From Candidatus Omnitrophota bacterium (lineage in GTDB: Bacteria > Omnitrophota > Gorgyraeia > Gygaellales > Profunditerraquicolaceae), in assembly GCA_025453395.1 (NCBI GenBank), contig JALOQK010000002.1:474509-538508 (forward strand): a stretch of 64,000 nt of DNA, in the 5' to 3' direction. The position numbers were made by a program, and so were the translations under genes. Below, piece after piece: positions 40,320 through 55,631 of this stretch; within the stretch, counting starts at the first letter, position 1; the number at the start of each line of letters is the position of its first letter. A model generated the notes under the pieces. That model made no database searches and was not told the origin of the DNA. It saw nothing but the letters and a program-made list of their open reading frames with translations.

Positions 40320-41303
40320 TTAGCTATGAAATACAATCTTTGCTCCTTCATGCTCAAAAGAAAACCAAAAAGGCACCAGCCCCATCTTGGCCATTGCCTC
40401 GACCAAAACAGATTTATTCTTTGGGCAATAGAAAAGAATAAATCCTCCTCCTCCGGCACCCGCAACTTTGCCGCCCAAAGCTCCGGACTTGCGCCCAGCC
40501 TCATACACTTCGTCTATGAAGCTGTCGGATACCTTGCCAGACAAACCTTTTTTTATCAACCAATGCTGATGCATTAGTTCACCAAAATCATCAAGCTTGC
40601 CCTTCTCAAAGGCAGCTCTGGTAGCAAGTCCGATTTCTTTTATCTTATGCAATCTCTGGATAGTTTTCTTATCATCCTGCTTAGTTTTTTGGTCTTGCTC
40701 AATTAAAACATCGCTTGCTGATCTTTCTTTATTCAAGAAAAAAAGCAGAAGATTATTCTGCAATTGAGCCAAATCTTCTTCCTTGATATCTACGGGATCA
40801 ACAACCACTGTGCCATCCGTATTAAAAGTATAGGCATTAAACCCGCCAAAACTAGCCACATACTGGTCTTGCTTACCAATCGGCTGCTTTAGAATATCAA
40901 GTTCTAAATGGCAAGCCGCCTCTGCCAGATCTTCAAGATTTAAATATTGCTTTTTATACGCATAAAGGCCGTTAAGCAATGAAACGGTAAAACTAGAAGA
41001 AGTGCCTAATCCGCAATGCGCCGGGACATCGGCTATAGAAACAATCTCTATCTGCCGGTTAATTTGCAACAGCTTTAATACCTCGCGGAATATTTTATGC
41101 TCTATGTCCTTAACCTGGCCCACTATTTCGGTCTTGGAATAAGAAAGGCGGATGGACTGATTAAAACGTTTATTGATATTAATATAAACGTATTTATTTA
41201 TTGCCGCGGCCATTAAGAATCCGCCATACTTTTTGTAATATGACGGTAAATCGGTTCCACCCCCGCCCATAGATAATCTAACCGGAGCGCGCGATATAAT
41301 CAT
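40320..41303 (-). CDS. GHMP-family sugar kinase, D-glycero-alpha-D-manno-heptose-7-phosphate kinase (HddA)-like
   Basis: MIISRAPVRLSMGGGGTD N-terminus typical of heptose/fucose GHMP kinases and the ATP-binding motif VPAHCGLGTSSS (PxGxGLGSS). It sits beside gmhA and the hddC-gmhB fusion. Confidence 0.7.
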   Translation of the reverse strand: MIISRAPVRLSMGGGGTDLPSYYKKYGGFLMAAAINKYVYININKRFNQSIRLSYSKTEIVGQVKDIEHKIFREVLKLLQINRQIEIVSIADVPAHCGLGTSSSFTVSLLNGLYAYKKQYLNLEDLAEAACHLELDILKQPIGKQDQYVASFGGFNAYTFNTDGTVVVDPVDIKEEDLAQLQNNLLLFFLNKERSASDVLIEQDQKTKQDDKKTIQRLHKIKEIGLATRAAFEKGKLDDFGELMHQHWLIKKGLSGKVSDSFIDEVYEAGRKSGALGGKVAGAGGGGFILFYCPKNKSVLVEAMAKMGLVPFWFSFEHEGAKIVFHS

Positions 41304-41309
41304 ATAATC

Positions 41310-42275
41310 TTAGATTGGTTTTTTGCAACTTTTATATATGGCCTCTGCTGATTTAGTTATTGCCTGAAGACTTGAGTAGGAATTATTCCAACCCAGCTTG
41401 CGGATCTTGCTTGAATCAAGCCTTACTACAGGGACATCACCCTGCCAACCCCTAGACCCGCCTGTGTATTCGTATTTAACTTTACTTAAACCCATTACCC
41501 TGGTTACAACATCCGCGATCTGCTTGACGCTTATTGAATCCAGTGTTGATACATTATAAAAATTAAATCCCTTATTCTTTCGTTGCGTCAATAAGATGGC
41601 TTTTATGACATCGCTTACATAAATATAAGACTTACTCTGTTTGCCGTTGCCTAATATCTTAAGGCGCTTTTTATCCTTTAACAATCTTCTGACAAAATCA
41701 TACCCCACCCCATGCGTCTGGTTTGGCCCCACGACATTGGCAAATCTTAAAACTGTCGCGTTAATCCCGAACATATGGCAATAAGCGCAGATAAGCGCTT
41801 CTGCGGCAAGTTTACTTGCGCCATAAGTGGAAACCGGTAAAAGCGGAGCATATTGCTCACTTAATCTATTTAAGCCAACATCGCCATAAATTCCGCTTCC
41901 AGATGAAAAAATTAGATTTTTTACACCGTTTACGCGCATTGCCTCAAGTATATTGTTCACCAGATATGTCCCTTCCCAGAAATCTATTTCTGGAAATTTA
42001 ACTGCGCGGGCGATATCAGCATTAGAAGCAAAATGATACACCAGCGAAACATCTTTAGTCAAACAACGCGATAACTTCTTTATGTCTTTAATATCAGCGT
42101 TTATTATCTGCAGACGAGAAGAACGCAAGTCTGATAAAAATGAAATATCCCCTGAAGAGAAATTATCATAAACGACAACCTTATCATTTGGACAGTTTGA
42201 TAAAAGATGCCGGCACATATGGCTTCCGATAAACCCTGCGCCTCCAGAAATAAAATATTTCTTCATATTATTCAA
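41310..42275 (-). CDS. NAD-dependent sugar epimerase/dehydratase (SDR family)
   Basis: YFISGGAGFIGSHMCRHLL Rossmann motif; a YxxxK region is present. 321 aa. Confidence 0.75.
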   Translation of the reverse strand: MNNMKKYFISGGAGFIGSHMCRHLLSNCPNDKVVVYDNFSSGDISFLSDLRSSRLQIINADIKDIKKLSRCLTKDVSLVYHFASNADIARAVKFPEIDFWEGTYLVNNILEAMRVNGVKNLIFSSGSGIYGDVGLNRLSEQYAPLLPVSTYGASKLAAEALICAYCHMFGINATVLRFANVVGPNQTHGVGYDFVRRLLKDKKRLKILGNGKQSKSYIYVSDVIKAILLTQRKNKGFNFYNVSTLDSISVKQIADVVTRVMGLSKVKYEYTGGSRGWQGDVPVVRLDSSKIRKLGWNNSYSSLQAITKSAEAIYKSCKKPI

Positions 42276-42835
42276 GTAGATATATTATTAACTATTAAAT
42301 GTAGCAGGACCGCCTGAAAACCTTCAGCATGAGGCGTAACTCTTTTTTGGTCTATAACAGGAATAAGAATGCAGGCATCGGAAATCTTGCGCGCCTCTCC
42401 TCCATCGCGGCTTACAATAGAGACAACTCTAGCGTTTTTTTCTTTAGCATAACGCATCGCTAAAACCAAATTCTGCGATACGGTCTTCGTTCCGCCTCCG
42501 ACAGAAAGAACAAGCAATACATCATTCTCAGTTAATTTAGAAACCTTCAACCATTCAATAAAAATATATTCAAAACCGGAATCATTAGTCCAGGCTGTTA
42601 ATTCAGAAACGTTATCCGAAGCAGCGTAAGCTTCAATGCGGGCTATCTTTCTAAAATCATTAACCGCGTGAGAGGCATTGGCCGCTGAGCCTCCTATCCC
42701 TAAGATAAAAAGCCTGCCGGCAGTATTTCGTAAATCTGAAATAACCGCGCTTACCTTTAAAATATCTTCGCGATTAATGCTATCAATTATATTTTTTGTC
42801 TCTGCAAAATAAATATCTATATAATCTTTGCTCAT
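42272..42835 (-). CDS. gmhA: Sedoheptulose-7-phosphate isomerase (phosphoheptose isomerase, SIS domain)
   Basis: 187 aa. LFILGIGGSAANASHAVNDF and DVLLVLSVGGGTKTVSQN..VSIVSRDGG follow the GmhA SIS pattern (GNGGS...HF / DVLLGISTSGNS...LTGKDGG; recalled from memory). Confidence 0.8.
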   Translation of the reverse strand: MSKDYIDIYFAETKNIIDSINREDILKVSAVISDLRNTAGRLFILGIGGSAANASHAVNDFRKIARIEAYAASDNVSELTAWTNDSGFEYIFIEWLKVSKLTENDVLLVLSVGGGTKTVSQNLVLAMRYAKEKNARVVSIVSRDGGEARKISDACILIPVIDQKRVTPHAEGFQAVLLHLIVNNIST

Positions 42836-43548
42836 AGTTTCAACCCCGAGTCTTGCGCATCTTTATAAAACATCTTTATCGTATCCAAGGAAAACTCGTG
42901 CAGATCATAATCAATAAGATGCATTTTCTTAATAAAATCAGGCAAAAGGGTAATTATATCAGATCCTGCCTGTTCGGCCTGAAAAATATTAAGCAGCTCT
43001 CTGGGGCTGGCCCATAAAATCTTAATGTTAGGCTTGTTTTTAATGAGAATCTTTGCCTTTTTAATAAATTCCACGGGGTCAACTCCTGTATCGGCAATCC
43101 TGCCGGAAAAGATAGAAAAAATAATATCCGCATCAGAATCGAGTTTATTGGCGACCTTCTTGATCTGCTCCAAAGTCATTATTGCGGTAACATTGACCTT
43201 TATCTTATCCTTGGAAAGCTCTGCAATAAGCTCAGAAGAGTCATCGCCCCTTGTATTCATAACCGGGATCTTCACATATATATTGGATCCAAAACCAGAA
43301 AGCCTTTTAGCCTGCTGTTTCATTTCTCTAAAATCATCGCTTATAACTTCAAAAGAAATAGGTTTGCCAGCTACAATCGGCAGAATCTGTTTTATAAATC
43401 CACAATAATCTTTTACCTGGGCCTTCCGCATAAGCGTGGGGTTGGTAGTAAATCCGTGTATATAGTCAAGCCCCGCCATAGAACGTAAATCATCAAGGCT
43501 TGCCCCATCACAGTATATTTTGACTTTAAGCGACCTAATTTTATTCAT
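42832..43548 (-). CDS. Transaldolase-family enzyme (TalC/Fsa-type, ~24 kDa)
   Basis: YCDGASLDD...GFTTNPTLM (matching DTSD...GVTTNPSII) and the active-site-Lys context VKIPV; 238 aa. A transaldolase can supply sedoheptulose-7-P to GmhA. Confidence 0.7.
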   Translation of the reverse strand: MNKIRSLKVKIYCDGASLDDLRSMAGLDYIHGFTTNPTLMRKAQVKDYCGFIKQILPIVAGKPISFEVISDDFREMKQQAKRLSGFGSNIYVKIPVMNTRGDDSSELIAELSKDKIKVNVTAIMTLEQIKKVANKLDSDADIIFSIFSGRIADTGVDPVEFIKKAKILIKNKPNIKILWASPRELLNIFQAEQAGSDIITLLPDFIKKMHLIDYDLHEFSLDTIKMFYKDAQDSGLKL

Positions 43549-43549
43549 A

Positions 43550-44875
43550 TTACTCTTTCGTATCTCTTAAATACCCAGCAAAATCAAGAATATTCTCAAA
43601 AACCAAATCCGGCTTACACTCCTGCAATCCCCCTGAATCATCCTTTTTATATTTACCGATAAAAACAGAACGCACGGACTTTTTCTTAGCCGCCAATATA
43701 TCTGCGGATGAATCTCCGACCATGTATGAATTGCCTATATCGATATTATATTTATCAATCGCCGTTTCTAAGAGCCCTGCTTGCGGCTTACGGCATTGGC
43801 ACTTCTTAACAAGAAACTGTTCTGCCGCTAGGTCAGAACCCTCCTGATGATGCGGACAAACCATAACATCATCTATTTCTACGCCATTTTCTCTGAATAG
43901 ATCCAGCATCCTATTATTGATTGCGTATATATCTTTAAGGGTGGTTTTCCCTTTTGCTGCCGCAGGCTGATTTGTGACCACGATCAAAAGAAACCCGTGT
44001 TTTTTCATCTGCTTTAACGCATCAAAAACTCCATCAATAAGACAAAATTCGTCCGGCTTTAATGGAGAATCAAACTGCTTGATATTATCATTAAAAACAA
44101 ACTTGTTTAATGTGCCGTCGCGATCAAGAAATATTGCTTTATTCTTCTGTGATAAGCGCTGTTTTATGAAATTCCTAAATTCTTCTAATGAACCCGAATT
44201 GCCTATTTCGCGGAATCTCTTTCTAGTTACAAAACCCGCAAGCAAACCATCCCTGACAAGCATAGAGTAAAAATCTGATAAATCGCCCACCGATGCGGGG
44301 ATTTTATCCACCAAAGCTTTATTTAAAAAGCTTGTGCCATAATCAATATAATCCATTTCTGCCTGACTGGACTTTTTATCGTATTTAACGATTCGGTTAT
44401 TCTCAAAAACTATGTTACTTTTATCATAAAGATTATTATTCTTAAGAATGCACATCATGCCTGAACCAGAGGAACTTTTCTTTAACAGCCAATAATTATA
44501 CAAGGCTTGCTGATAATCCATGTCCATAAAAGAGTCTCCATAAGAAAGCATAAAATCATCTTCCAAAAGCAACATGGCATTTTTAAGAGCACTCGCTGTG
44601 CCTTCAGCACCCGGCGGGTCAGGTGAATATTCTATTTTTACGCCAAATTCAACGCCATCGCCAAAAAAATCATATATATATTCTTTCCCAAAGCCAACAC
44701 AGAAAATAAACTTCTTAAAACCAGCTAAACGCAATAGGTCAAACTGATAAGAGAAAAACGGCTTGCCTTCTACTTCAGCCATGGCTTTAGGCAGATTGCC
44801 AATGACACCGCCTAAACGCGTACCCTTACCCCCCATCAAAACAACGACCTGTAATTCTCTTGCATCTGGAATCAT
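43550..44875 (-). CDS. Bifunctional sugar-1-phosphate nucleotidyltransferase (HddC-like) / D,D-heptose-1,7-bisphosphate phosphatase (GmhB, HAD) fusion
   Basis: N-terminal VVLMGGKGTRLGGVIGNLPKAMAEVEGKPF nucleotidyltransferase signature. C-terminal AIFLDRDGTLNKF...LLIVVTNQ...KG HAD motifs typical of GmhB. Confidence 0.7.
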   Translation of the reverse strand: MIPDARELQVVVLMGGKGTRLGGVIGNLPKAMAEVEGKPFFSYQFDLLRLAGFKKFIFCVGFGKEYIYDFFGDGVEFGVKIEYSPDPPGAEGTASALKNAMLLLEDDFMLSYGDSFMDMDYQQALYNYWLLKKSSSGSGMMCILKNNNLYDKSNIVFENNRIVKYDKKSSQAEMDYIDYGTSFLNKALVDKIPASVGDLSDFYSMLVRDGLLAGFVTRKRFREIGNSGSLEEFRNFIKQRLSQKNKAIFLDRDGTLNKFVFNDNIKQFDSPLKPDEFCLIDGVFDALKQMKKHGFLLIVVTNQPAAAKGKTTLKDIYAINNRMLDLFRENGVEIDDVMVCPHHQEGSDLAAEQFLVKKCQCRKPQAGLLETAIDKYNIDIGNSYMVGDSSADILAAKKKSVRSVFIGKYKKDDSGGLQECKPDLVFENILDFAGYLRDTKE

Positions 44876-45615
44876 GCCAGTTTAACAACCTTGTTATCCT
44901 GATAAATAAAAGTTTTGGGAAAAACATTACGCGCAATTCTTAAAGCCAGCCTTCTCTGCTTGATGCTGGTATATATACTGGAATCAAAGTGCACCAAAAC
45001 TAACTTCTTCACGCCGCACTGTTTGGCAAAAGAAGCTGCTATTTTTGGATTTAAATGCGGCCACGAGGGGTCATCTTGGCCTAATTTATACGAAGATTCA
45101 AGAAATAATACATCCGCGTTATTGGCAAGAGAATACAGATTATCGCAAATACCGGTATCAGTAGCAAAACTAATAATCTTATTCTCCAGTAAAAATCTAT
45201 AACCATAGCAAACCGAAGAATGCCTTAAGGGATAGAACTTTAAACCAAAGGGAAATTTTACTTTCTGTGTCAATTCTTCAACCTCTACCTGCATCTTGAG
45301 ATCTTTTATAGGGACCGAATACGGCTGGGCAATGATAGAATTAAGATTCCTTTTTATCCCCGGTGGCCCAAAAATCTTTAGGCCTTTTTTAAATCTGAAT
45401 TTTGCTAAAGCATGTAGCCCTATAATATGGTCCAAATGAAAGTGACTCAAGAAGAGATATGACTTTTTATCAGCCTTAATATACTTATCCAGCTTATATA
45501 ATCCGCTTCCCGCATCAAGAATAATGCATTCCCTCTTTGTTTCTATTAAAATACATAGAGTATTACCCATTGGGCTGTCGTACCAACCGTTAGTACCTAA
45601 GAAAAACGCCTTCAT
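44872..45615 (-). CDS. MBL-fold metallo-hydrolase
   Basis: HFHLDH (HxHxDH) zinc motif; 247 aa; 4-nt ATGA overlap with the upstream gene. Confidence 0.75.
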   Translation of the reverse strand: MKAFFLGTNGWYDSPMGNTLCILIETKRECIILDAGSGLYKLDKYIKADKKSYLFLSHFHLDHIIGLHALAKFRFKKGLKIFGPPGIKRNLNSIIAQPYSVPIKDLKMQVEVEELTQKVKFPFGLKFYPLRHSSVCYGYRFLLENKIISFATDTGICDNLYSLANNADVLFLESSYKLGQDDPSWPHLNPKIAASFAKQCGVKKLVLVHFDSSIYTSIKQRRLALRIARNVFPKTFIYQDNKVVKLA

Positions 45616-46595
45616 ATTTTGCGCCTTTTTAAAATACTACTATACCAGCCATAAGTGCTGGATAGCCCATCTTTAAGCAAAACCTTGGGCCTCCAATGCA
45701 AAATCTTCATCGCCTTAGACGAGTTAAGATACTGTTTCTTAATCTCATATTTGGCCTTGTTTAGAATATTAATCTGTAGTTTTTTCCCGGTAACACGATA
45801 AACAAGGTTTAATAATTCGAAAACTGACAGGGGTTTTTGGTTGCTGAAATTGAAGGCTTCGCCTTTTAACTTCTTGCCCCTCATGCATTGCGCAATCATA
45901 ATGTATCCGCCAACCACATCGTCAACATGAATATAATCTCTTATAAATTTGCCATCGCTTCTAATAACAAGATTTCTGCCCAAAACCAAACACCTGAAAG
46001 CGTCTGGAATAAGACGAGAAAAATTAAGGTCTCCCGGGCCGTAAATATTTCCTGAACGGGTTATGGCTACCGGAAGATTGAAAGTAGCTGCGTAGGACTT
46101 GGCAATCATATCCGCGCAGGCCTTGGATACATCATAAGGATGCTCTGCTAAAAGCGCGGCATCCTCTTGATAAGGTAGTTTATTATGGCTTCCGTAAGCC
46201 TTATCGCTTGAGGCAACTACAATTGCCTCTATACCCGTTTTTCTTCTGGCGGATTCTAACAGCTTCCAGGTGCCCTCTACATTAGAAGAAAAGGTCTGCG
46301 TTGGATTCTTAAGGCCACAAGATACAATCGCTTCAGCAGCAAGATGAAAAATAATCCTGATTCGGCGCTCTCTTATTATCTTATCTATTAATTTACTGTC
46401 CCTAACGTCACCGCTATAGGTAACAATCTTTTTATACTGCTGCTGATCAAGCAAGCGCACAGAACGATTTGTGTCAATATCTAAACCTATAACCTTGGCA
46501 TCTAATTCTAAAAGGCGTTTACATAAATTCGCCCCTAAAAACCCCTCATGCCCGGTAACTAATACCGGCTTATTCCTCCAAAAAGATTTAGGCAT
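45612..46595 (-). CDS. rfbG: CDP-glucose 4,6-dehydratase-like SDR (RfbG/DdhB candidate)
   Basis: FWRNKPVLVTGHEGFLGANLCKRLL N-terminus parallels RfbG FWQGKRVFVTGHTGFKG (recalled from memory). It lies immediately downstream of rfbF (2-nt gap). Confidence 0.7.
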   Translation of the reverse strand: MPKSFWRNKPVLVTGHEGFLGANLCKRLLELDAKVIGLDIDTNRSVRLLDQQQYKKIVTYSGDVRDSKLIDKIIRERRIRIIFHLAAEAIVSCGLKNPTQTFSSNVEGTWKLLESARRKTGIEAIVVASSDKAYGSHNKLPYQEDAALLAEHPYDVSKACADMIAKSYAATFNLPVAITRSGNIYGPGDLNFSRLIPDAFRCLVLGRNLVIRSDGKFIRDYIHVDDVVGGYIMIAQCMRGKKLKGEAFNFSNQKPLSVFELLNLVYRVTGKKLQINILNKAKYEIKKQYLNSSKAMKILHWRPKVLLKDGLSSTYGWYSSILKRRKI

Positions 46596-46597
46596 TT

Positions 46598-47368
46598 TTA
46601 CTTCCAGATTTTCCAGGGAGCGTTTCCTGATTGCCAGAGGCGCTCTAATTCATTACGGTCGCGCAACGTATCCATAGGCCTCCAGAACCCCTGATGCCGA
46701 TAGGCGGATAATTTCCCTGCCCGGGCAAGAGCCTGAACAGGTTCTTTTTCCCAAAGCACATCCCCATGAATGTAATCAAAAATCCCCTGCTCCATAACAA
46801 AAAATCCGGCATTTATCCAAGCGTTATCGCCTTTGGGCTTCTCGGTAAAGGCCTTAACTTTATTATTCCTTTCAATATCTAAACTGCCAAACCTGCCCAA
46901 AGGCTGAACCGCGGTTACTGTAGACAAGGCTTTACTTTTACGATGAGAATCCAAAAGTTTCTTTAGATTAATATTTGCCAAACCATCTCCATATGCCATC
47001 ATAAAAGTATGCTTTCCTAAATATTTGCGTACTGCCAGCAATCTTGCGGCTGTCAATGCCTCCAGGCCTGTATCCACCAAAGTAACTCTCCAAGATTCAG
47101 TTTTATTCTCATGTATAATGGTTTTCCCTTGAGCAAGATCAATAGTAACATCGCTTTTATGCAAAAGGTAATGCGAAAAATACTCTTTAATGATATACCC
47201 TTTATAGCCTAAGCAGACAATAAAATCATTAAACCCAAAGCTTGAATATATCTTCATGATATGCCACAAGATGGGCTGGTTGCCTATTTCTACCATGGGC
47301 TTCGGGACTACAGTGGTAGCTTCACTAAGGCGGGTGCCTTTACCTCCGGCAAGAATCACAACTTTCAT
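46598..47368 (-). CDS. rfbF: Glucose-1-phosphate cytidylyltransferase
   Basis: MKVVILAGGKGTRLSEATTVVPKPMVEIGNQPILWHIMKIYSSFGFNDFIVCLGYKGYIIKEYF is near-identical in pattern to RfbF/DdhA N-termini (recalled from memory). Start set to the ATG at 47368 with AGGAG 6 nt upstream. The track's extra 5 aa start at a TTG. Confidence 0.9.
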   Translation of the reverse strand: MKVVILAGGKGTRLSEATTVVPKPMVEIGNQPILWHIMKIYSSFGFNDFIVCLGYKGYIIKEYFSHYLLHKSDVTIDLAQGKTIIHENKTESWRVTLVDTGLEALTAARLLAVRKYLGKHTFMMAYGDGLANINLKKLLDSHRKSKALSTVTAVQPLGRFGSLDIERNNKVKAFTEKPKGDNAWINAGFFVMEQGIFDYIHGDVLWEKEPVQALARAGKLSAYRHQGFWRPMDTLRDRNELERLWQSGNAPWKIWK

Positions 47369-47423
47369 TTTATTCTCCTTCAATAGGCTCGTAAGTTATA
47401 GATTTGACTACAGATAGACCTTT

Positions 47424-47475: not shown

Positions 47476-47503
47476 TTGACACCGCCTAAAGAAGTAGTAT
47501 AAT
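47476..47503 (+). promoter_or_regulatory. Candidate sigma70 promoter with consensus hexamers (TTGACA-16-TATAAT) for the plus-strand GT-C gene
   Basis: TTGACA at 47476-47481 and TATAAT at 47498-47503. The ATG at 47515 follows only 11 nt later with no Shine-Dalgarno sequence, implying a very short or leaderless 5' UTR, or use of a downstream start such as the ATG at 47578. Confidence 0.45.
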
Positions 47504-47514
47504 TTTCCATAATC

Positions 47515-50028
47515 ATGCTAGAAAAACACCCCCTATTGAAGAAGATACTTTTAACTAGCTTAATTTGCCTTCCGGTTATGGCGCTAGGCGCATATTTCCG
47601 CCTCTATCCTTTAATAAATAAAGGGCCCGCCTATGCCAAGAAAATGGCCACTGAAGTTGTCCATGCGCATTTCAAAGATAAGCTTAGGCTATACATCCAA
47701 AAGACCTACCCAAATCTGGACACTAAAGAAAAGGGCAAACTCTTAAGAATTAAATTTAAAGAATCTTTAATTGATGATGCCGCTGCCATTAGCGCCATGA
47801 TTGAAGAAGGCACAAGAGAGCTTCTTAAATCCGACAATATCCGCGTAAGCCCATTTCTCTTAGAAGCGGATTCCTACAATTTCTACGGCTTAACTGAAAA
47901 TATATACAAAACCGGAAAAATAAGCCCGCAAATAGAAAAGGGAAAATACTTTAATCCGCTGATGCTTGCTCCTTTTGGCAAATGGGAGCCGTTATCATTA
48001 CACCCGTTTCTCGGATACTACCTCTACAGAGTAATTAACCTCTTCGAAACGGGAGTAGAACTCATGGAAGCGATAAAATGGCTAGTAATCCTTATCTCTG
48101 TAATATCAGTTATTCCGTTTTTCCTTGTGTCTTTGCGCCTGAGAATATCTGCGTTAAATACCTTTGTCGGGCTTATTTTCTTTATATTGGGTCCGCTGTT
48201 TGTTCAAAGGACTGTCTGGGGATGGTATGACACAGATGTCTACAACATATTCTTCCCGACGCTGATATTGCTTTCTGTCTTCAGCATGTTTCTTGCGCTG
48301 GATAAGCCTAAGAAGCCGTACCTGATAGCTATGCTGACCTCTTTTCTTACTGCGGCTTATGAACTTTTTTGGCATGGCTGGGGTTTTATTTTTGTAATAA
48401 TGCTGGCGGCGCTTCCTTTTATTCTTCTGGCAGATTACAAATTTAACCACAAACAATATGCCAAAAAAATTATTTTATGCTACGCAACCTATCTTATTTC
48501 TACTTTTTTTTGTATAAGCATACTAATATCCCCGCACACATTCCTGTATACCTTTGAGGAAGGCCTTAAGATGCTCTCCAGTTTCTTAGGCGCAAAATTT
48601 GACCTCTGGCCGAATATTTTCTTGACGGTCGGAGAGACGCAAAGCATGTCTTTGGAAAAAGTTTCGTTTTTAGTAGGGGGAAACTACAACTATATATATT
48701 TCCCGATAGCGGGATGCTTGATGTTTCTTTTTTCTTCCTTTAGGCTAAGAAATATACGCTTGCTGTTTTCAAGTATCCTCTTAACCGTATTCTTACTGGG
48801 AACTCTATATCTGGCTTTAAAAGCAGTAAGGTTTTCCATCCTGCTGAGTGTGCCAGCGGCGCTATGTTTTACCCTTTTCTTAGAATATACATCCAAAGGC
48901 GTAATCTATTTGGTAAAAAACAAATTTAAAAAGCAACATTTTGTAAAACCCGCAAAATCAATTATGGCGGTTATTTTCTTGGCACTAACAATTATCCCGA
49001 TTTCTTCTGCCGATCTAATAGCTGGAAGAATAACGCCTATCTATAACCAAACATGGGATAACGCCATGCAGAAAATAAAAAAGCTCACCCCCGAAAACAG
49101 CATAATTAACACATGGTGGTGCCCGGGGCATTTTATTACGGCTGTTGCCAAAAGGCGCGTAGTGGCCGACGGAGCGTCCCAACAAGAGCCTCAAACCTAC
49201 TGGATCGCTAACGCGCTTCTTTCTAACAGTGAAGAGCTTTCTCTTGGAATATTGCGCATGCTTGATTTGAGCGGCAATAAGGCGTTGGAGTATTTAGAAT
49301 ATGAGCATGGGATGATTGTTTCTGATGCCACAAGCCTCTTAAAGAAGATACTGCCTCTTAACCAACAGGAAGCAGATGCGGTTCTTGCCTCTGAAGGATT
49401 TACACCTGAAGAAAAAACCACGATCTTAAGGATGACGCATCAAACACCTTTTGCGGCATATATAATGGTCTACACGGAAATGGTTGACTCATACGCAGCC
49501 CTTCCCTATATAGGTAATTGGGATTTTAAAAAAGCTGAATATTTAATACTTAACACACAAAGTAATAAAAATATCCGCATACCTTCGCGCGATTCCAAAG
49601 ATTTCTTAGATTTTATTTTCTCTCTATCAGGAGGATTACCTGCCTGCAGCCCCAGATACAATGAAGTTGCGCGAAAAGACAATAAGATAAGGTTTGAAAA
49701 TAACTTCGTACTCAATATTGACACAAAAGAAGGTTTTATAATCTCGCAAAAGGACGGGTCAATAATCCAACCCAAAAGCATATTCTATGCGGAAAATGGC
49801 CAGCTTCAAGAAAAGAAATACGCCTCCAGCACTCTCCCATATTCCGTGCTTTTAGCAGAAAACAATAACTCGTACGCGATATTTCTGCTTGATGAATCGG
49901 TAGCAAAGTCATTCCTTTTCAAGCTTTATTATCTTAAAGGCAAGACTCTAAAACACTTCACGCCTGTCTTTACCGAGGAAAGCCCCACTAAAGATATGGT
50001 AATAATGTTGTATAGAATAAACTGGTAG
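47515..50028 (+). CDS. GT-C fold membrane glycosyltransferase with STT3/AglB/PglB-like architecture (candidate oligosaccharyltransferase-like enzyme)
   Basis: 837 aa with about 13 TM helices and a ~350-aa C-terminal soluble domain. The first extracytoplasmic loop has EADSYNFYGL (D-x-Y-x-[FY]-Y, as in STT3 DPYFNYR, recalled from memory). About 50 aa after the last TM sits NTWWCPGHFI, positionally equivalent to WWDYG but with Cys-Pro replacing Asp-Tyr. Confidence 0.5.
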   Translation: MLEKHPLLKKILLTSLICLPVMALGAYFRLYPLINKGPAYAKKMATEVVHAHFKDKLRLYIQKTYPNLDTKEKGKLLRIKFKESLIDDAAAISAMIEEGTRELLKSDNIRVSPFLLEADSYNFYGLTENIYKTGKISPQIEKGKYFNPLMLAPFGKWEPLSLHPFLGYYLYRVINLFETGVELMEAIKWLVILISVISVIPFFLVSLRLRISALNTFVGLIFFILGPLFVQRTVWGWYDTDVYNIFFPTLILLSVFSMFLALDKPKKPYLIAMLTSFLTAAYELFWHGWGFIFVIMLAALPFILLADYKFNHKQYAKKIILCYATYLISTFFCISILISPHTFLYTFEEGLKMLSSFLGAKFDLWPNIFLTVGETQSMSLEKVSFLVGGNYNYIYFPIAGCLMFLFSSFRLRNIRLLFSSILLTVFLLGTLYLALKAVRFSILLSVPAALCFTLFLEYTSKGVIYLVKNKFKKQHFVKPAKSIMAVIFLALTIIPISSADLIAGRITPIYNQTWDNAMQKIKKLTPENSIINTWWCPGHFITAVAKRRVVADGASQQEPQTYWIANALLSNSEELSLGILRMLDLSGNKALEYLEYEHGMIVSDATSLLKKILPLNQQEADAVLASEGFTPEEKTTILRMTHQTPFAAYIMVYTEMVDSYAALPYIGNWDFKKAEYLILNTQSNKNIRIPSRDSKDFLDFIFSLSGGLPACSPRYNEVARKDNKIRFENNFVLNIDTKEGFIISQKDGSIIQPKSIFYAENGQLQEKKYASSTLPYSVLLAENNNSYAIFLLDESVAKSFLFKLYYLKGKTLKHFTPVFTEESPTKDMVIMLYRINW

Positions 50029-50032: not shown

Positions 50033-50587
50033 TTACGCGGCAACCACCGTCTTGGTAATAGACATATTGCACTTAACGGTGCCTTTTTCTTTATCCTTAG
50101 ATGCGATATTATAGCTTACAATATTGAAAAGGCTGTTTGAGGTTTCCAGACGGAAAATAAAATCGGCCAATTGCTCCATTGTGGCTTCGCATGACAAGCT
50201 TACAGAATATTTCTTCATCAGCTTCTCTTCTTTCAAATCCACCGGCTTAATCTCCCCTAAACTGACATTAGCCTTATTCGCTAATGTCTCTATTTCTTTT
50301 AATATAGAAGACAGCTCTTCTTCCTGTGATGTGGCATTAGATAAATAAACCGAGAATTCTTGGTCTTGTTTCTGGATTAAATCTTTCTGTGAAAGAATTT
50401 TCAGGTTTTTCTTTATGGAAAGCTCCTGCATGCGTATCTGCTCTTCCTGTGAACCTATTTTAGCTAAAATCGCGCTTAACACCAAACGGTCAAAAATAGC
50501 CATCACTAAAAATGCTACAGCTATATAAGTAATCAACTTTTCCTGTTTAGAAAATTTACTCCAATTAAATTCTAACTTACTGGCCAT
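50033..50587 (-). CDS. GspM/PilO-like bitopic inner-membrane pilus assembly protein
   Basis: 184 aa: short cytoplasmic N-terminus, one TM (LITYIAVAFLVMAIF), then a coiled-coil-rich periplasmic domain. It is the last gene of the gspE..gspL..gspM-like cluster. Confidence 0.45.
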   Translation of the reverse strand: MASKLEFNWSKFSKQEKLITYIAVAFLVMAIFDRLVLSAILAKIGSQEEQIRMQELSIKKNLKILSQKDLIQKQDQEFSVYLSNATSQEEELSSILKEIETLANKANVSLGEIKPVDLKEEKLMKKYSVSLSCEATMEQLADFIFRLETSNSLFNIVSYNIASKDKEKGTVKCNMSITKTVVAA

Positions 50588-50590
50588 ATT

Positions 50591-52021
50591 TTACCTCTGC
50601 TCTAATTTAGCGCTTATTTCAAAATCAGCCACATCTTTACCCGCCTCTTTACGGTTAGCGGTATTTTGGGCGGTAACATCTTTAAAATACTTTGAATTTT
50701 CTAAGGAAGTAACAAGCGCGAACACCTCCGACATGGCCTCAGCTGTCCCTTTAATGAATATAGTTGAATCCTGATCAATGCTTATATTCTTTAAATATAC
50801 GCTTGTGGGAATTAGCTCATAAAGCCATGATATAGAATCTAAAGCGTGATTTTTCTTTTTGAGGGCGTCTTTTATAACAATGATCTTGCTTAATTTACCT
50901 TCAAGATTAGCCACATCCGGAGAGGTGCTTTTAAGCTGTTCTTGAAGCCCGGAAAGATATACCCCGCGGTAATAAATCCTCACCAGAAGCATCGCGCAGA
51001 TGAAGATAACTATAAGCATTACCAAGAACCCGCTCTTGATGATTTCCTTGCTTCTTTCCTGAAAAGCCATCTTTAATTTTAAATCCAGCGGCCTTAAGTC
51101 TATCCTGGCATCCTCTGCCGAAATAACCAAAGCGATTAAAGATGACAAGGCCAGCTTTTTATCCTCCTGTATAACCTCGGCAGGGACAGAAACACTCTTA
51201 TAAAACAAAAGGTCCTTGGACGGCATAGTAAATGCCATTGAGGCGCTTGCCTTAACTAACTCCACCATATCAACGGGGCCTATGAAATTGATTTCATCTG
51301 GCATAACATCTATTTCTTCGGCGCGGTAAGCGTCAAAAGACTTCTTAAGCTCATCAGCAAACCTTAAGATACTTGCATTCTTATCAGCTAAGAAATCATT
51401 ATGCCCAACCGGGATATTTCTGACAAAAACACTCATACCTTTAGATATAATAATAAAATCAGAATTAACCTGAGATATTCTAACAACAACGCTGGGGCTG
51501 GCTTTTTTCTCTATCTTAAGCAGTTTTATGCAAGATAAGCCTATATTTTCCGCGGCGTATTGCACGCGGGCGACTTGGAAACCTGCTAAGTTGATAATTT
51601 CTATCTGCCTCTTAAGCTCTGCCTGCACGACTATCACAACCAAAACTTTAGTATAACTATTATGATATGTGCCGATATTGACATGATCAATGATAATTTC
51701 TTCTCTTGCGTAAGGGGTATATCTTCCGGATTGAAGATCAATTATCTCTTTTATTTCCTTATCGCTTGTGGAGGGCACTTCTATATTCTTAGTGATAACA
51801 GCGTGGGAATCAATGCTTAAAATAACTCTGAAATTGCTTGCCTTAAGCGCCTTGACATTGTCCTTAAGCAACTTCGCAATACCAATGGCATCACAAGATT
51901 TAATATCAAAAACTTTAATCCCTGTTATTTCATATTTAGCGCCTGCGCGCTTGCCGTAACATAAATTTACAGTATCCCCGCGGAAATTTACCGCAAGCAC
52001 ATTTCGTATTTTATCAGCCAT
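50591..52021 (-). CDS. GspL-like / PilM-PilN fusion-type assembly protein
   Basis: 476 aa: an actin-like cytoplasmic domain (about 300 aa), a single TM (IIKSGFLVMLIVIFICAMLLV), and a periplasmic C-terminal domain. The topology matches GspL, which is structurally a PilM+PilN fusion. Confidence 0.55.
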   Translation of the reverse strand: MADKIRNVLAVNFRGDTVNLCYGKRAGAKYEITGIKVFDIKSCDAIGIAKLLKDNVKALKASNFRVILSIDSHAVITKNIEVPSTSDKEIKEIIDLQSGRYTPYAREEIIIDHVNIGTYHNSYTKVLVVIVVQAELKRQIEIINLAGFQVARVQYAAENIGLSCIKLLKIEKKASPSVVVRISQVNSDFIIISKGMSVFVRNIPVGHNDFLADKNASILRFADELKKSFDAYRAEEIDVMPDEINFIGPVDMVELVKASASMAFTMPSKDLLFYKSVSVPAEVIQEDKKLALSSLIALVISAEDARIDLRPLDLKLKMAFQERSKEIIKSGFLVMLIVIFICAMLLVRIYYRGVYLSGLQEQLKSTSPDVANLEGKLSKIIVIKDALKKKNHALDSISWLYELIPTSVYLKNISIDQDSTIFIKGTAEAMSEVFALVTSLENSKYFKDVTAQNTANRKEAGKDVADFEISAKLEQR

Positions 52022-52023
52022 AA

Positions 52024-53052
52024 CTATGCCCCGTTCTTAATACTTTCTCGCCAATACTTTACTGACCCGGACAACACATCATAAACACAATCCACATCTA
52101 TTAATCTTTTGCCTGCCCCATAACCTGCTTTTGCGTGCAAATGAACACAGGAAGATTTATCCGTTAACAGGCCATTTAGGGCCTTTTGCAGCTGTTCAAT
52201 TTCAGACTGCATCAAAACCGAATCTTTATTTAAATCTTCAATATAATTTTTGATTTCTTCTTCTACAACATCATCTTCTGTCCCGCATATTTTATCCGCG
52301 CCCTTACGGAACATGCTGATCTTTTTCACAAGAACACTGTCTAAACCTAAAATCTCAAGGACCTTAAGGGAAGCTGAATTAATATTAACCCTGCCATTAC
52401 CATAAATAGTAACATATGATTTGATTTTATTAAAGTCTTCTTCTTGCATCCCGGGGATATCTTTTAACTCATCGATAAACTCAATATTAGAGTTCTTAAG
52501 CCACGCAGAAGACGCGAACCCATAAAAAACTTCTTCGGCAGCTGCATTACTGGCTAAATCATCATTATCTCTATAATCAATAATACGGTTACTTAAATCT
52601 TCGGCCTTAGCATCGCTTAAAGCGCAAACTTTAACAAAAAGATTCTTAATGGTCTCAAAAGAAGCTGTGTTCAAGTTAATTTTGCTTTCTTCATCAATAA
52701 CCCCGTAACAAACTTCATCCCCGCAAGAACTTCCAAGCTGCCCGTTATAATCCAGAGAAAGATTGATTCCGCCTAATTTTCTTTCCCCGAAGAATTCAGG
52801 GTTATTAGAAAGAACGCTTTTAAGCCCGTAGAACTCTTGCTTTACCCCCTGATTGGCCAGCTGCCATATCCCAAGATCAACCGCTGACATAGCTGCTAAA
52901 CGTAATTTGTCGCTATCCTCTATTCTCTTGACGAATAAAATCTTCTGGTTAACAGCCGCACCGATGAAAACCACAAATACCGTCAAGCATGTTACCACCC
53001 AAAGGCTTAAGAAAAGTATAGAGCCTTCTTTCTTTTTTCTTAATTGACGCAT
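52024..53052 (-). CDS. GspK-like large minor pseudopilin
   Basis: 342 aa. N-terminal MRQLRKKKEGSILFLSLWVVTCLTVFVV hydrophobic pseudopilin-type segment, then a large periplasmic domain; size and position typical of GspK. Confidence 0.55.
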   Translation of the reverse strand: MRQLRKKKEGSILFLSLWVVTCLTVFVVFIGAAVNQKILFVKRIEDSDKLRLAAMSAVDLGIWQLANQGVKQEFYGLKSVLSNNPEFFGERKLGGINLSLDYNGQLGSSCGDEVCYGVIDEESKINLNTASFETIKNLFVKVCALSDAKAEDLSNRIIDYRDNDDLASNAAAEEVFYGFASSAWLKNSNIEFIDELKDIPGMQEEDFNKIKSYVTIYGNGRVNINSASLKVLEILGLDSVLVKKISMFRKGADKICGTEDDVVEEEIKNYIEDLNKDSVLMQSEIEQLQKALNGLLTDKSSCVHLHAKAGYGAGKRLIDVDCVYDVLSGSVKYWRESIKNGA

Positions 53053-53621
53053 AGATTAATTATCCTTGATAAATCTACGGCCCTATTATTCTTTATTATC
53101 CTTATATTAACCCTAACAGCGCTTGGCAAAGGATTGTCGCTTTGCGAATCCCATATTTCTGTAAACTGCTTTTTCTTTGGGTAATAATAACTAAAAGACA
53201 GGCTTTCTACTTTCTCCACGATAGGGCTGGGGCTGACCGCATATTTACTCACTTTGACCGCTTTCCAACTGTTAAATGTGCGTAAAATATCTTTATTATC
53301 TTGGTCAAAATAATACCTAACGCGCCCCAAACCTAAATAGCTTGTTTTATCCTGATGGACATAATCTACCGTGGTAAATGATAATTCTTTTTGGCTGCCA
53401 TAACCTAAAATACGCGAGAAAACGCATAAATTATGCAGGTCATTGGTTATTTTATCAAAAAATACTGCCACCTGCACATCCCCGGAGCCGTCTTTTATTC
53501 TCTGCCAAATTTTTACTCCAGAAGAAAAACTCTGATACACCAGAACCCCTAATACCGCCAACAAAACAACAACTATATTTAATTCAATAAAACTAAACCC
53601 AGGGTGAGTTTTAATCTTCAA
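53040..53621 (-). CDS. Minor pseudopilin (GspJ-like) with a prepilin-type N-terminal cleavage/methylation motif
   Basis: MKIKTHPG|FSFIELNIVVVLLAVLGVL: a G-F-(S/T)-(L/F)-I-E class III signal-peptide motif. Confidence 0.6.
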   Translation of the reverse strand: MKIKTHPGFSFIELNIVVVLLAVLGVLVYQSFSSGVKIWQRIKDGSGDVQVAVFFDKITNDLHNLCVFSRILGYGSQKELSFTTVDYVHQDKTSYLGLGRVRYYFDQDNKDILRTFNSWKAVKVSKYAVSPSPIVEKVESLSFSYYYPKKKQFTEIWDSQSDNPLPSAVRVNIRIIKNNRAVDLSRIINLCVN

Positions 53622-54018
53622 AATAAAAACCTCGCGAGAAATCTATTTTTTTAGCCTCGTTTACTATCGTCAAAACCAACCCTGCATGATACATATTCTT
53701 CTTTGGTGGTTTTTCTTGCGTGACAGGCGAGATATTTGTTTTCCAGGAATAACTGACACCGGATTCTTGGCCTAGAAATGATGCCAACCCGGAGGCAAAA
53801 ATCTTGGCCTTCCCAGGAGAATTCTTCATTTCCCAAACAAGATTATTAGCCACACAGGAAACCGCTATTCTTTTTAGCAAATACTGGTCTATGCTTAAAG
53901 ACCTTAACAAAGACTGGAAAATAACCACTATCGCCAAAGACAAAATAGCGCTTGTAAGCATAATCTCCACCAAGGTAAATCCCGCTATTGTTTTGCTACT
54001 GCCAATTGGAGATATCAT
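53611..54018 (-). CDS. Minor pseudopilin (GspH/GspI-like) with a prepilin-type N-terminal motif
   Basis: Start moved to the internal ATG at 54018 (MISPIGSSKTIAG|FTLVEIMLTSAIL). The track ORF extends to 54078, deep into the gspG-like gene. Confidence 0.55.
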   Translation of the reverse strand: MISPIGSSKTIAGFTLVEIMLTSAILSLAIVVIFQSLLRSLSIDQYLLKRIAVSCVANNLVWEMKNSPGKAKIFASGLASFLGQESGVSYSWKTNISPVTQEKPPKKNMYHAGLVLTIVNEAKKIDFSRGFYFED

Positions 54019-54412
54019 CCTTGCTTTCCTTGCCGTCCTTTCCCAAACTCCAGAGATCATAATCTGGGCGATGCTCACCAGGAGATTTATACAAATATTC
54101 TTTACCCCATGGATCAGCTGGCCTTCTTTCTAAATATGGGCCATTCCAGTTTTCCGGCACAGGGGAAATTGTCGGCTTTATCATCAACGCAATTAAATTC
54201 TGCTCTGTGGTCGGGAAGCTGCCGTTATCTAATTCATAAAGCTTCAAGGCTGTAGCAAGATTAACTGTGATATCGGCCTTACAAGCAGCGGTTTTGGCTT
54301 GTTCGGACCGGCCGACAAGCCGCGGTAAGACCATAGCGGATAATGAACTTATAATTATCACCACCAGCAATATTTCTATTAAAGTAAATCCTTCTTGCTT
54401 TTTTTTATTCAT
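53996..54412 (-). CDS. gspG: Major pseudopilin / type IV pilin, GspG-like
   Basis: MNKKKQEG|FTLIEILLVVIIISSL prepilin motif and a GspG-like body (YELDNGSFPTTEQ...NWNGPYL...PADPWGKEYLYKSPG, matching the DPWGNPY motif). Confidence 0.8.
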   Translation of the reverse strand: MNKKKQEGFTLIEILLVVIIISSLSAMVLPRLVGRSEQAKTAACKADITVNLATALKLYELDNGSFPTTEQNLIALMIKPTISPVPENWNGPYLERRPADPWGKEYLYKSPGEHRPDYDLWSLGKDGKESKDDISNWQ

Positions 54413-54424
54413 AGGGTAATAGGG

Positions 54425-55630
54425 TTAATTTACAAATAAATTAAGCTGCAATATCGGCAAAAGCATGGCAATTATAACATAACTTAACACTATGCCCACG
54501 ATAAGTATCGTAACCGGCTCAAGGTACGAAGTAATGACTTTAAGGGCATCATCGGTATCTTCCTGAAAATAGCGCGCGATTTCCGCGAACATCTCATCAA
54601 GCCTGCCGGATTCCTCTCCGACGCTAACCAAATTCCCAAAGAATTTAGGCAGGATATTTGATTTCTTTAAATCCACCCCCCAAGCGCCACCCGATCTTAT
54701 CCTTTCAGATGCCGAAGAAATTTCTTTCTTTATGGCTTCATTGTCCATAACAGGTATAGCTAAATCTACGGCCTTTAAAATATTAATTCCGCTTTTAAGT
54801 GAAAGTTCCAAAGAGGCGCTAAAACGCGCCAACTCTGATTTCACAATGAAACCATTATATAAAGGAATTGCTAAAAGCACTTTGCTTAATAGGATTTTAT
54901 TGCGCTTGGCTATATTTCTTAGCACGAAAACTATTAAAATACACGCCAACAAGAACCAAATAAAATAAGACTTTAACAACTGGCTTGCCCAAAGGAGACT
55001 ACTGGTTACCCAGGGAAGCTGTTGCTCTAAATTAACATACATAGAGCTTATTTTGGGGACAACAAACACAAGCATAAAAACTACCGTAGCAAGTCCTACC
55101 AGCAACATAAAACAAGGATATATTAAGGCAAATTTCACTTTTTTGCGCAGTTCATGCTCCTTTATAAGGTACCCGCCTACTCTATCCAAAGCTAAAGATA
55201 AATTGCCGGTATTTTCTCCGGATCTTATAATAGCTATGTATAACCCGGGAAAGACCAGAGGATATTTAGCCAAACAAATCGATAAGGCCGCGCCGGATCT
55301 TACGTCAGCAATAATCTCATCTATAATCTGGGACAGGCCGTTACTTGCGGTTTGTTCTTCTATTATGGCAAGGGCCTTTAATATGGGCACACCGGTTTTT
55401 ACCAAACGCGAAAGCTGGCCTGTAAAGATAATAACCTGTTTTAAGGAAACTTTGGAATGAGCCTGGCTATAGCTTGTGCGCTGCAGATCTCCAGAAACAA
55501 GCTCTAACTTAACAGGCACCAGGCCCTGGCGGTTAAGTAAATCCACAGCGGCATCTCTGTTAGAGGCCTCGAGTATCCCTTCTTTTAGCTCTGTGGGGCT
55601 TTTTTTAGCTGTATATTTAAAATTAGGCAT
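54425..55630 (-). CDS. gspF: Type II secretion / type IV pilus platform protein (GspF/PilC family)
   Basis: 401 aa with two repeated cytoplasmic domains separated by TM helices. Characteristic ...GENTGNLS.. and ...GEESGRLDEM.. repeat motifs of GspF/PilC. Confidence 0.85.
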   Translation of the reverse strand: MPNFKYTAKKSPTELKEGILEASNRDAAVDLLNRQGLVPVKLELVSGDLQRTSYSQAHSKVSLKQVIIFTGQLSRLVKTGVPILKALAIIEEQTASNGLSQIIDEIIADVRSGAALSICLAKYPLVFPGLYIAIIRSGENTGNLSLALDRVGGYLIKEHELRKKVKFALIYPCFMLLVGLATVVFMLVFVVPKISSMYVNLEQQLPWVTSSLLWASQLLKSYFIWFLLACILIVFVLRNIAKRNKILLSKVLLAIPLYNGFIVKSELARFSASLELSLKSGINILKAVDLAIPVMDNEAIKKEISSASERIRSGGAWGVDLKKSNILPKFFGNLVSVGEESGRLDEMFAEIARYFQEDTDDALKVITSYLEPVTILIVGIVLSYVIIAMLLPILQLNLFVN

Positions 55631-55631
55631 A

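Follow-up and report, generated by a model that had tools for sequence, protein, structure and literature searches.

The stretch of DNA analysed here, called the window below, comprises 64,000 nucleotides (nt) of a contig (JALOQK010000002.1) from a Candidatus Omnitrophota bacterium, and the gene studied in it encodes an STT3-like membrane glycosyltransferase (GT) of family GT66, a homolog of the catalytic subunits of oligosaccharyltransferases (OST). It corresponds to an open reading frame (ORF) with an ATG start and a product of 837 amino acids. Among the ORFs of at least 150 amino acids, it is the only one on the plus strand of the window that is not nested in a minus-strand ORF, in agreement with a first-pass annotation of this DNA, which had described a lone plus-strand gene. 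The other intergenic gaps are occupied by small minus-strand ORFs, and window-wide scans for tRNAs and Rfam families gave no matches. The coordinates of the gene, of its functional elements and of the neighbouring features are collected in Table 1.

The sigma-70-type promoter of the gene, divergent from the sugar genes, had been annotated as near-consensus, and its match is in fact complete, with TTGACA at 47476-47481 and TATAAT at 47498-47503 separated by a spacer of 16 nt. Since the -10 box is only 11 nt away from the ATG, and no Shine-Dalgarno sequence is found upstream of this start codon, a near-leaderless mRNA is expected. Back to back with this promoter, another one on the opposite strand (10/12 match) points at the first sugar gene of a minus-strand run that extends from 47383 to 232. 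The run is real, but it is not the purely nucleotide-sugar operon of 47 kb that had been annotated, as it also holds a gene for an S41 peptidase, several GT2 genes, GT-C candidates and nine radical S-adenosylmethionine (radical-SAM) genes.

Table 1. Positions, strands and supporting evidence of the features discussed (window numbering; EL, external loop; TM, transmembrane helix; T2SS, type II secretion system; AF2, AlphaFold2).
Feature	Position	Strand	Evidence
Sigma-70-type promoter of the STT3-like gene	47476..47503	+	12/12 consensus match; read from sequence
STT3-like (GT66) membrane glycosyltransferase gene, 837 aa	47515..50028	+	ORF, Pfam, profile, AF2, Foldseek
Clade-specific helical EL1 insertion (residues ~31-105, between TM1 and catalytic Asp)	47605..47829	+	AF2
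Codon of D119, EL1 catalytic Asp (= PglB D56 / STT3A D49)	47869..47871	+	Profile alignment, conservation
R232...D239-x-D241, metal-binding Arg and DxD	48208..48237	+	>=95% conserved; alignment
Codon of E374, EL5 TVGE (= TIxE/SVSE; PglB E319)	48634..48636	+	Invariant; motif match
Codon of R439, equivalent of donor-phosphate-binding Arg	48829..48831	+	Invariant; alignment
Periplasmic C-terminal alpha/beta domain (residues ~505-837)	49027..50025	+	AF2, Foldseek 3aag, sub-threshold PF21436
WWCPGH (residues 534-539) at WWDYGY position	49114..49131	+	Alignment; clade distribution
T2SS-like (type IV filament) operon	50033..57791	-	Pfam/NCBIfam; convergent with STT3-like gene, stop codons 4 nt apart
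GspG-like major pseudopilin	53996..54412	-	In T2SS-like operon
Lineage-specific sugar-biosynthesis island	19145..47383	-	Between S41-GT2-DUF2304 genes and STT3-like gene
GT87-like GT-C candidate	26365..27561	-	Family scan; inside island
S41 C-terminal-processing peptidase with PDZ	17928..19148	-	Pfam/NCBIfam; displaced by ~28 kb of sugar genes
GT2, GacI/PpgS/AglJ-like candidate polyprenyl-monophosphate sugar synthase, 244 aa	17194..17928	-	NCBIfam, L003 ortholog
DUF2304 small membrane protein (GacJ/Rv3632-like), 114 aa	16859..17203	-	PF10066, E=8e-21
YfhO/PgfM-like GT-C candidate	9471..10796	-	Family scan

Family, fold and catalytic residues

The Pfam STT3 family (PF02516) matched residues 110-468 of the protein with E=2.5e-20 (73.8 bits, for a gathering cut-off of 24.5), and it was present in all the 37 relatives scanned. 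When a profile of 34 relatives was compared with the PDB, human and canine STT3A (9e-17) and Archaeoglobus AglB (AfAglB, 4e-16) were retrieved, and the best NCBIfam match was the archaeal STT3 model. The model of the STT3/PglB/AglB core domain, PF21436, covered residues 530-583, where it is expected, with a score under its gathering score (E=0.0045, 17.9 bits versus 23). An AF2 model built on an alignment of 34 relatives (pLDDT 89.4, pTM 0.84) displayed, together with the hydropathy analysis, 13 TM helices, after which the chain forms an alpha/beta domain of about 333 amino acids in the periplasm. The Foldseek comparison of this model with the PDB yielded exclusively OST catalytic subunits in ranks 1-19, with PglB at 5.9e-20 (TMt 0.66-0.67), AglB at ~1e-13 and STT3 at ~1e-12, and even the isolated C-terminal domain of PglB (3aag) was matched at E=5e-8. 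An identity as a GT-C enzyme of the PMT/ArnT/YfhO type was rejected, because such folds appeared at E ~1e-4 or worse, versus ~1e-20 for PglB; DPY19, AftA, ArnT and PMT were many orders of magnitude weaker than the OSTs. So, it can be said that the protein truly belongs to the STT3/AglB/PglB (GT66) family, and that its C-terminal domain is of the OST type. The STT3-like topology with about 13 TM helices and the option of a true OST relationship, both advanced in the first-pass annotation, are confirmed by these data, except that the periplasmic domain is somewhat shorter than the ~350 residues proposed there; the PMT/ArnT/YfhO-like fold devoid of an STT3 domain, mentioned there as the opposite outcome, was not what AF2 and Foldseek returned.

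Concerning the active site, conservation was evaluated in a clade alignment of 166 sequences, where D119, R232, D239, D241, E374 and R439 are each conserved in at least 95% of the relatives. The stretch EADSYNFY (residues 117-124), in which a D-x-Y motif had already been recognised at the EL1 catalytic position, aligns D119 with the catalytic D49 of human STT3A, and D119 was invariant in 34 out of 34 relatives; this EL1 Asp is D56 in PglB and D47 in AglB (PMC7226087). R232, D239 and D241 keep the spacing of PglB R147, D154 and D156, with GWYDTD aligned to GSYDNE of STT3A, and the profile alignment places the DxD motif on STT3A D167/E169 and R439 on STT3A R405, which is the Arg of the VMVRLML stretch (equivalent to PglB R375 and STT3 R404-405). 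E374 was assigned by motif inspection, as the EL5 loop remained unaligned by the hidden Markov model (HMM). Judging from these alignments and from the roles that catalytic, metal-site and phosphate-binding residues play in OSTs (PMC7226087), a complete metal and catalytic centre is predicted in a single-subunit GT66 enzyme. The catalytic Asp is located at a median of 91 residues beyond TM1 in 151 clade members, and the intervening part of EL1 contains an insertion of ~70 residues, modelled by AF2 as three helices (31-64, 70-87 and 89-105).

Replacement of WWDYG and extent of the clade

The sequence NTWWCPGHFI (residues 532-541) lies some 31 residues beyond the last TM, a distance shorter than the ~50 residues of the first-pass annotation, which was otherwise right about its position. 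In a phmmer alignment, WWCPG falls column for column on the WWDYG of STT3A and of Pyrococcus AglB, so that the replacement of the one motif by the other, already claimed in that annotation, can be taken as established. Considering the 166 proteins of the clade, position 536 is occupied by Pro (110), Ser (22), Cys (16), Ala (9) or Thr (5), and never by Asp; position 537 is Pro in 163 of them, replacing Tyr; Gly538 is invariant; and position 539 is either His or Tyr. W534 is kept in 162 proteins and W535 in 165, the first Trp being missing in a few members with motifs such as SWGPGH or GWSPGH. When the counts were made on 80 species-representative loci, they were WWPPGH (54), WWPPGY (7), WWAPGH (7), WWSPGH (6), WWCPGH (5) and WWPVGH (1), and WWD did not occur in any of them. 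The Cys of the window is, hence, a minority variant within a clade signature WW[P/S/C/A/T]PG[H/Y] where Pro is the norm: what the relatives conserve of WWCPG is the pair of Trp, not the Cys.

A DG[AG] motif is found in the clade 18 residues after WW, a spacing that we take to be that of DGG in PglB. On the other hand, no conserved Lys or Ile could be recognised by sequence alone for the DK (DXXKXXX[M/I]) or MI (MXXIXXX[I/V/W]) signatures, whose place in canonical OSTs is the kinked helix opposite WWD. The candidate position (658/659) is E/D or a mixture of K/Q/N, and the canonical DK and MI patterns occur, anywhere C-terminal to WW, in 39 and 5 of 161 sequences, respectively.

The pocket that WWD forms for the +2 Ser/Thr has been described as present in all OST enzymes (PMC3703281), and the single mutants D459V, Y460N, Y460C and G461D of Campylobacter jejuni PglB are inactive while still being expressed (PMC3527161). 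With both Asp and Tyr gone, and a variable small residue at the Asp position, the classical +2 Ser/Thr reading would be lost in the clade.

An exhaustive search of 1.84 billion cluster representatives with an HMM gave 1385 matches at E<=1e-30; the best 150 of them were all below ~1e-186 and nearly all were full-length. The relatives occur in 173 species-representative genomes, with record titles that are overwhelmingly Ca. Omnitrophota, and the clade comprises more than 150 clusters at 50% identity, the identity of the 166 relatives to the window protein being mostly 30-50%. The window protein itself is identical to a hypothetical protein, of slightly shorter annotated length, from a Ca. Omnitrophica metagenome-assembled genome (MAG). 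In the literature library searched, no paper was found on this clade, nor any linking Omnitrophota/Omnitrophica to STT3, OST or pilus glycosylation. Altogether, these proteins constitute an Omnitrophota-wide, previously undescribed branch of GT66, set apart by the degeneration of its Ser/Thr pocket, by the insertion in EL1 and by a gene context of its own.

The closest canonical relative, P0036, has the motif WWDFGH and an archaeal-type gene context. Two other proteins are possible evolutionary intermediates, as far as their motifs tell: P0179 (locus L087, 10001..12115) has WWDPGH and its locus includes an archaeal S-layer-type protein, DUF5131 and a giant beta-helix protein, and P0037 (629 amino acids) has WWPYGY and an EL1 of normal short length. 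When P0037 was used as the query of a homology search, the few relatives recovered were AglB-like and of archaeal type, and none belonged to an Asp-less group that has been named or characterised. One MAG (CAZRVK01) contains two paralogs, one with WWCPGH beside a T2SS-like operon (L007), and the other, 38% identical to it, with WWPPGH and no T2SS or protease genes within reach (L010). Some loci, among them L007, L009 and L033, carry titles such as 'uncultured Planctomycetales', 'Patescibacteria group bacterium' or 'Lysobacterales bacterium' and have a locus of the same Omnitrophota type, which in L009 and L033 extends to the T2SS-like operon downstream and in L009 comprises an ATP-synthase gene as well. 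Those titles are probably coarse or wrong labels, or else the contigs were mis-binned.

Neighbouring genes

Gene neighbourhoods were compared in the 80 species-representative loci, of which 64 were informative for the T2SS and 77 for the protease, with a reach of 10 kb for T2SS and sugar genes. The first-pass annotation had overlooked the T2SS-like operon on the other side of the gene, the serine protease and a GacI/GacJ-like gene pair.

The T2SS-like operon encodes a PilO-like protein, a PilM-PilN fusion, GspK, GspJ, a minor pseudopilin, GspG, GspF and GspE. Its assembly platform is of the PilM-PilN/PilO type, and the hallmarks of GspG are present in 41 orthologs of the major pseudopilin. GspE has an N-terminal MshEN and a C-terminal PilZ domain, and it is likely under cyclic di-GMP control. 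Neither the secretin GspD nor the prepilin peptidase GspO was found in the scanned ORFs, whether of the window or of the related loci (within 10 kb), and both may be encoded elsewhere in the genome. The operon is located within reach of the STT3-like gene in 57 of the 64 informative loci and, as in the window, it is convergent with it in 51 loci. In six species loci the STT3-like gene is embedded in the operon, with gspK and an S41 gene downstream on the same strand. The embedded and inverted layout was seen in L003, L053, L061, L067, L069, L072 and L075; WWPPGY was the motif in all six embedded species loci checked (L053-L075), and WWPPGH in the protein of L003 (P0035). ATP-synthase genes, for the gamma subunit and then for an alpha/beta-type subunit, run straight into gspE, a junction conserved phylum-wide (55632..60178 in the window, L001-L004 and many of L007-L086).

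An exported serine protease, either S1 or S41, adjoins the STT3-like gene in 66 of the 77 informative loci. The S1 protease is directly upstream on the same strand in 50 loci, with GDSGGP kept in 47 of the 50, and the S41 protease is upstream in 8 loci; in 6 others it lies downstream with the same orientation, and in 2 it is divergent. S41 orthologs stand directly beside the STT3-like gene in L002, L003, L009 and 14 other loci. The trypsin-like S1 and the S41/PDZ proteases are unrelated families that share one slot (L002, L004, L011-L086). Apparently, a non-orthologous displacement has taken place here, a hint that a protease is needed as partner.

Downstream of the S41 gene of the window, and on its strand, come the genes of a GT2 and of a DUF2304 protein, the latter overlapping the stop region of the former. 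The best NCBIfam matches of the GT2 were PpgS (1.2e-28), AglJ (9.5e-20), a dolichyl-phosphate hexose transferase and ArnC, all of them well below the equivalog cut-offs. The GacI/GacJ and PpgS/Rv3632 pairs make polyprenyl-monophosphate N-acetylhexosamine for a GT-C enzyme, with GacJ in the role of activator of its partner GT2 (bioRxiv 10.1101/180810). The pair of the window has orthologs in L003 (51% identical for GT2, 54% for DUF2304), where the GT2 gene is divergent from the STT3-like gene at 20 nt according to gene calls; the pair is also divergent at 32-153 nt in L053, L061, L069, L072 and L075 (tblastn edges). In L009, the STT3-like gene is separated by 177 nt from a divergently oriented S41-GT2-DUF2304 operon. 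The pair is a conserved neighbour in the sub-lineage of the window, and in most loci it is absent within 10 kb. Among the window ORFs of at least 150 amino acids that were scanned, there was no typical Pfam match to a PglC/WecA-type initiator, Wzx, Wzy or WaaL.

Since L009 has the same layout without them, about 28 kb of sugar genes would have been inserted in the lineage of the window. The island contains heptose-pathway genes, a NeuB-like gene, DegT, a thiamine-pyrophosphate enzyme, epimerases, B12-radical-SAM genes, GT2s and the GT87-like candidate; it is absent in L009 and shorter in the closest relative, L001. Among the 80 species loci, just 3 had nucleotide-sugar genes within reach of the STT3-like gene, and 14 had some homolog of the sugar genes of the window. 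The first-pass annotation had proposed the STT3-like enzyme as the best candidate for transferring the product of the 47-kb operon. Given the scarcity of flanking nucleotide-sugar genes and the rival GT-C candidates in the island, this proposal is weakly supported: the functional tie between gene and operon is lineage-specific and weak, and the STT3-like enzyme is one of several possible terminal transferases, because the minus-strand run has further GT-C candidates.

Some other observations on the minus-strand run can be added. The segment 26365..29569 (-) combines a second ArnC/AglJ-like GT2 (28835..29569), a flavin amine-oxidase-like gene and the GT87-type GT-C, and looks like an independent module for sugar transfer from a polyprenyl phosphate. 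Four tandem B12-binding radical-SAM paralogs (31730..37673, -) are located among the sugar genes, and there are six more radical-SAM genes, two of them with SPASM (30673..31728, 38519..39562, 15745..16848, 6432..7496, 2516..3637 and 232..1095). Their number suggests that the glycan is C-methylated to an unusual degree, or else modified by other radical reactions. The ORFs 10789..12000 and 9471..10796 (-) overlap by 8 nt, and only the second one matches a YfhO/PgfM-type C-terminal end; they may be one large membrane glycosyltransferase, either split or frameshifted. The ORF 12007..13779 (589 amino acids) had no family match. Two adjoining small proteins (151 and 146 amino acids; 13792..14706, -) have N-terminal hydrophobic segments and similar sequences, and look like paralogs.

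Proposed function, alternatives and known systems

The overall reading that we favour is that of an OST-like GT66 enzyme with altered acceptor recognition, which receives its donor through the GT2/DUF2304 pair and works in a secretion/protease setting; its chances of being right or wrong are judged to be about equal. In the mechanism considered most likely, exported proteins would receive at an amide (Asn) acceptor a glycan, which may be a single sugar, that the enzyme collects on the periplasmic side from a polyprenyl-phosphate carrier; the sites would be selected in some way that differs from the Asp-mediated reading of a +2 Ser/Thr. The Asn acceptor is favoured because the D119/E374 pair is invariant and the OST core domain is retained, and we give it even chances; an altered sequon, which the residues at positions 536 and 537 point to, may also hold with a probability near one half. 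Synthesis of the donor would probably begin with the GacI/PpgS/AglJ-like GT2 and the DUF2304 protein paired with it, and in the window genome it would be fed by the nucleotide-sugar genes inserted between the pair and the transferase; a monophosphate-linked donor made by this GT2 is proposed tentatively, with a probability that falls short of even. The exported S1/S41 protease and the T2SS-like pseudopilus operon would be the probable functional setting, as substrates or as partner machine, while targets related specifically to the T2SS or to the protease are somewhat doubtful. A still bolder version is that of a phylum-wide, vertically inherited OST branch, possibly of archaeal origin, that combines a new acceptor code, a monophosphate donor and coupling to T2SS and protease; taken as a whole, it seems rather unlikely.

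Several observations weigh against the favoured reading. Out of 86 related loci, the GT2/DUF2304 pair is near the STT3-like gene in only 7, namely L003 and 6 of the 80 species loci, and in the window the pair is 28 kb away from it; moreover, the known GT-C enzymes fed by GacI/GacJ decorate polysaccharides, not proteins (bioRxiv 10.1101/180810). The usual arrangement of the T2SS-like operon is convergent with the STT3-like gene, so the two are not co-transcribed, and the synteny is no proof of function, because ATP-synthase genes are conserved in the same block. In the 41 orthologs of the GspG-like pseudopilin there was no conserved N-X-S/T, 21 of them being devoid of any N-X-S/T, and the only conserved Asn motif was the LDNG that is generic of GspG; the missing sequon neither supports nor excludes the pseudopilin as a non-canonical substrate. 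Finally, both Trp of the motif are kept and could still hydrogen-bond a +2 hydroxyl.

This last point leads to an ordinary OST specific for N-X-Ser/Thr, in which the two Trp and the residues of the PGH context would still form the Ser/Thr pocket and the loss of Asp would be compensated. The near-universal retention of W534 and W535, the intact catalytic set, the conformational plasticity of the WWDYG loop (PMC3703281) and the WWDPGH of P0179, which indicates that the PGH context is compatible with the canonical Asp, are in its favour, but D459V, Y460N and Y460C each abolish the activity of PglB (PMC3527161), the assortment of Pro, Ser, Cys, Ala and Thr at position 536 is unlike selection for a hydrogen-bond acceptor, a few members have lost the first Trp, and no DK/MI Lys or Ile is recognisable. 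We consider this alternative unlikely. A low probability is also assigned to an enzyme acting on something other than protein, i.e., an STT3-fold counterpart of GacL/Rv3779 that would transfer a single sugar from polyprenyl-monophosphate onto an envelope glycan or lipid, an idea close to the terminal glycan or heptose transferase that the first-pass annotation had offered as its other option. It would agree with the GacI/PpgS-like GT2 and DUF2304 genes directly beside the STT3-like gene in several loci, with the polysaccharide-modifying character of the GT-C enzymes served by characterised pairs (bioRxiv 10.1101/180810), and with the degenerate +2 pocket for the peptide. Nevertheless, D119 and E374, which in OSTs hold and activate the Asn carboxamide, are invariant, the OST-type periplasmic core is kept, and the pair is near the gene in a minority of loci. 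We know of no GT66 member with a non-protein acceptor, which also counts against this alternative.

An enzyme dedicated to terminal transfer for the 47-kb sugar operon, with the T2SS/protease association reduced to inherited gene order, is very unlikely. The STT3-like gene does share back-to-back promoters with the first sugar gene, the island occupies precisely the space from the transferase to the S41-GT2-DUF2304 genes, into which it continues on the same strand, the closest relative L001 has its shorter island there too, and the conserved ATP-synthase genes are an example of non-functional synteny. However, the low counts of nucleotide-sugar genes (3/80) and of any sugar homolog (14/80) contrast with those of the T2SS (57/64) and the protease (66/77), and in six species the gene is embedded among T2SS genes and followed by gspK. 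In addition, the minus-strand run has its own GT87-like and YfhO/PgfM-like GT-C candidates and a second ArnC/AglJ-like GT2, and among its scanned ORFs an initiating phosphoglycosyltransferase, Wzx, Wzy and WaaL found no Pfam match. As for an STT3 homolog that has lost its catalysis and serves as a structural element or scaffold, an idea in favour of which the loss of the signature WWDYG speaks, its probability is negligible: each metal-binding and catalytic residue is conserved in at least 95% of the 166 sequences, which are mostly 30-50% identical to the window protein, and the idea was rejected on account of such strong purifying selection on the active site.

The interest of the favoured reading, that of an OST-like enzyme with altered acceptor recognition, comes from the fact that WWDYG is treated as a universal signature of N-glycosylation across all three domains, with its Asp reading N-X-Ser/Thr. 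A clade that keeps the catalytic residues and discards Asp and Tyr is a natural experiment on the rewriting of acceptor specificity. If Asn is still glycosylated, there would be a new sequon rule, and also a tool for glycoengineering, where OSTs of relaxed or different specificity are sought; if the acceptor is not a protein, this would be the first GT66 enzyme of that kind; and if the coupled version held true, it would represent a previously unknown bacterial system of protein glycosylation dedicated to a secretion or filament machine. The T2SS/protease linkage offers in any case a testable approach to the biology of the cell surface in Omnitrophota, a phylum that is uncultured and for which lifestyles dependent on a host are suspected.

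Compared with known systems, the locus resembles those of pilin glycosylation (PglL/PilO/TfpO and TfpW, or archaeal AglB acting on pilins and archaellins) in the link between a membrane glycosyltransferase and a type IV filament operon. The bacterial pilin enzymes are, however, Wzy_C-type O-oligosaccharyltransferases or the arabinosyltransferase TfpW, not GT66, and the filament here is T2SS-like (GspG, J, K), with pseudopilin orthologs that lack a conserved sequon. With GacI/GacJ/GacL of Streptococcus and PpgS/Rv3632/Rv3779 of Mycobacterium it shares a GT2 and a DUF2304 protein beside a GT-C enzyme, but this GT-C has the STT3/OST fold and OST residues, unlike GacL and Rv3779; those systems modify polysaccharides, and here the pair is near the STT3-like gene in a minority of loci.

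AglJ and AglK play an initiating role for archaeal AglB. The euryarchaeal route from AglJ/AglK to AglB, where a DPM1-like GT2 starts donors linked to dolichyl phosphate, is similar in that an STT3-family enzyme goes together with a small GT2, and AglJ ranks second among the curated matches of the GT2 found here; the archaeal STT3 model as the best NCBIfam match, the archaeal-type context of P0036 and the lack of a PglC/WecA-type enzyme among the ORFs scanned go in the same direction. It differs in that AglB keeps WWDYG, whereas here the host is bacterial and the GT2 is paired with DUF2304 of the GacJ/Rv3632 type. Finally, with respect to PglB, AglB and STT3 in general, the differences are WW[P/S/C/A/T]PG[H/Y] without a recognisable DK/MI, the ~70 extra EL1 residues in three helices and the sub-threshold PF21436 score, to which the location of the gene outside a pgl-type cluster, beside a T2SS-like operon and a protease, is to be added. 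Yet the similarities include the GT-C fold of 13 TM, with an alpha/beta domain in the periplasm or lumen, the EL1 Asp, the Arg and DxD at PglB spacing, the EL5 Glu and the donor-phosphate Arg and, like PglB, the window enzyme is single-subunit and bacterial.

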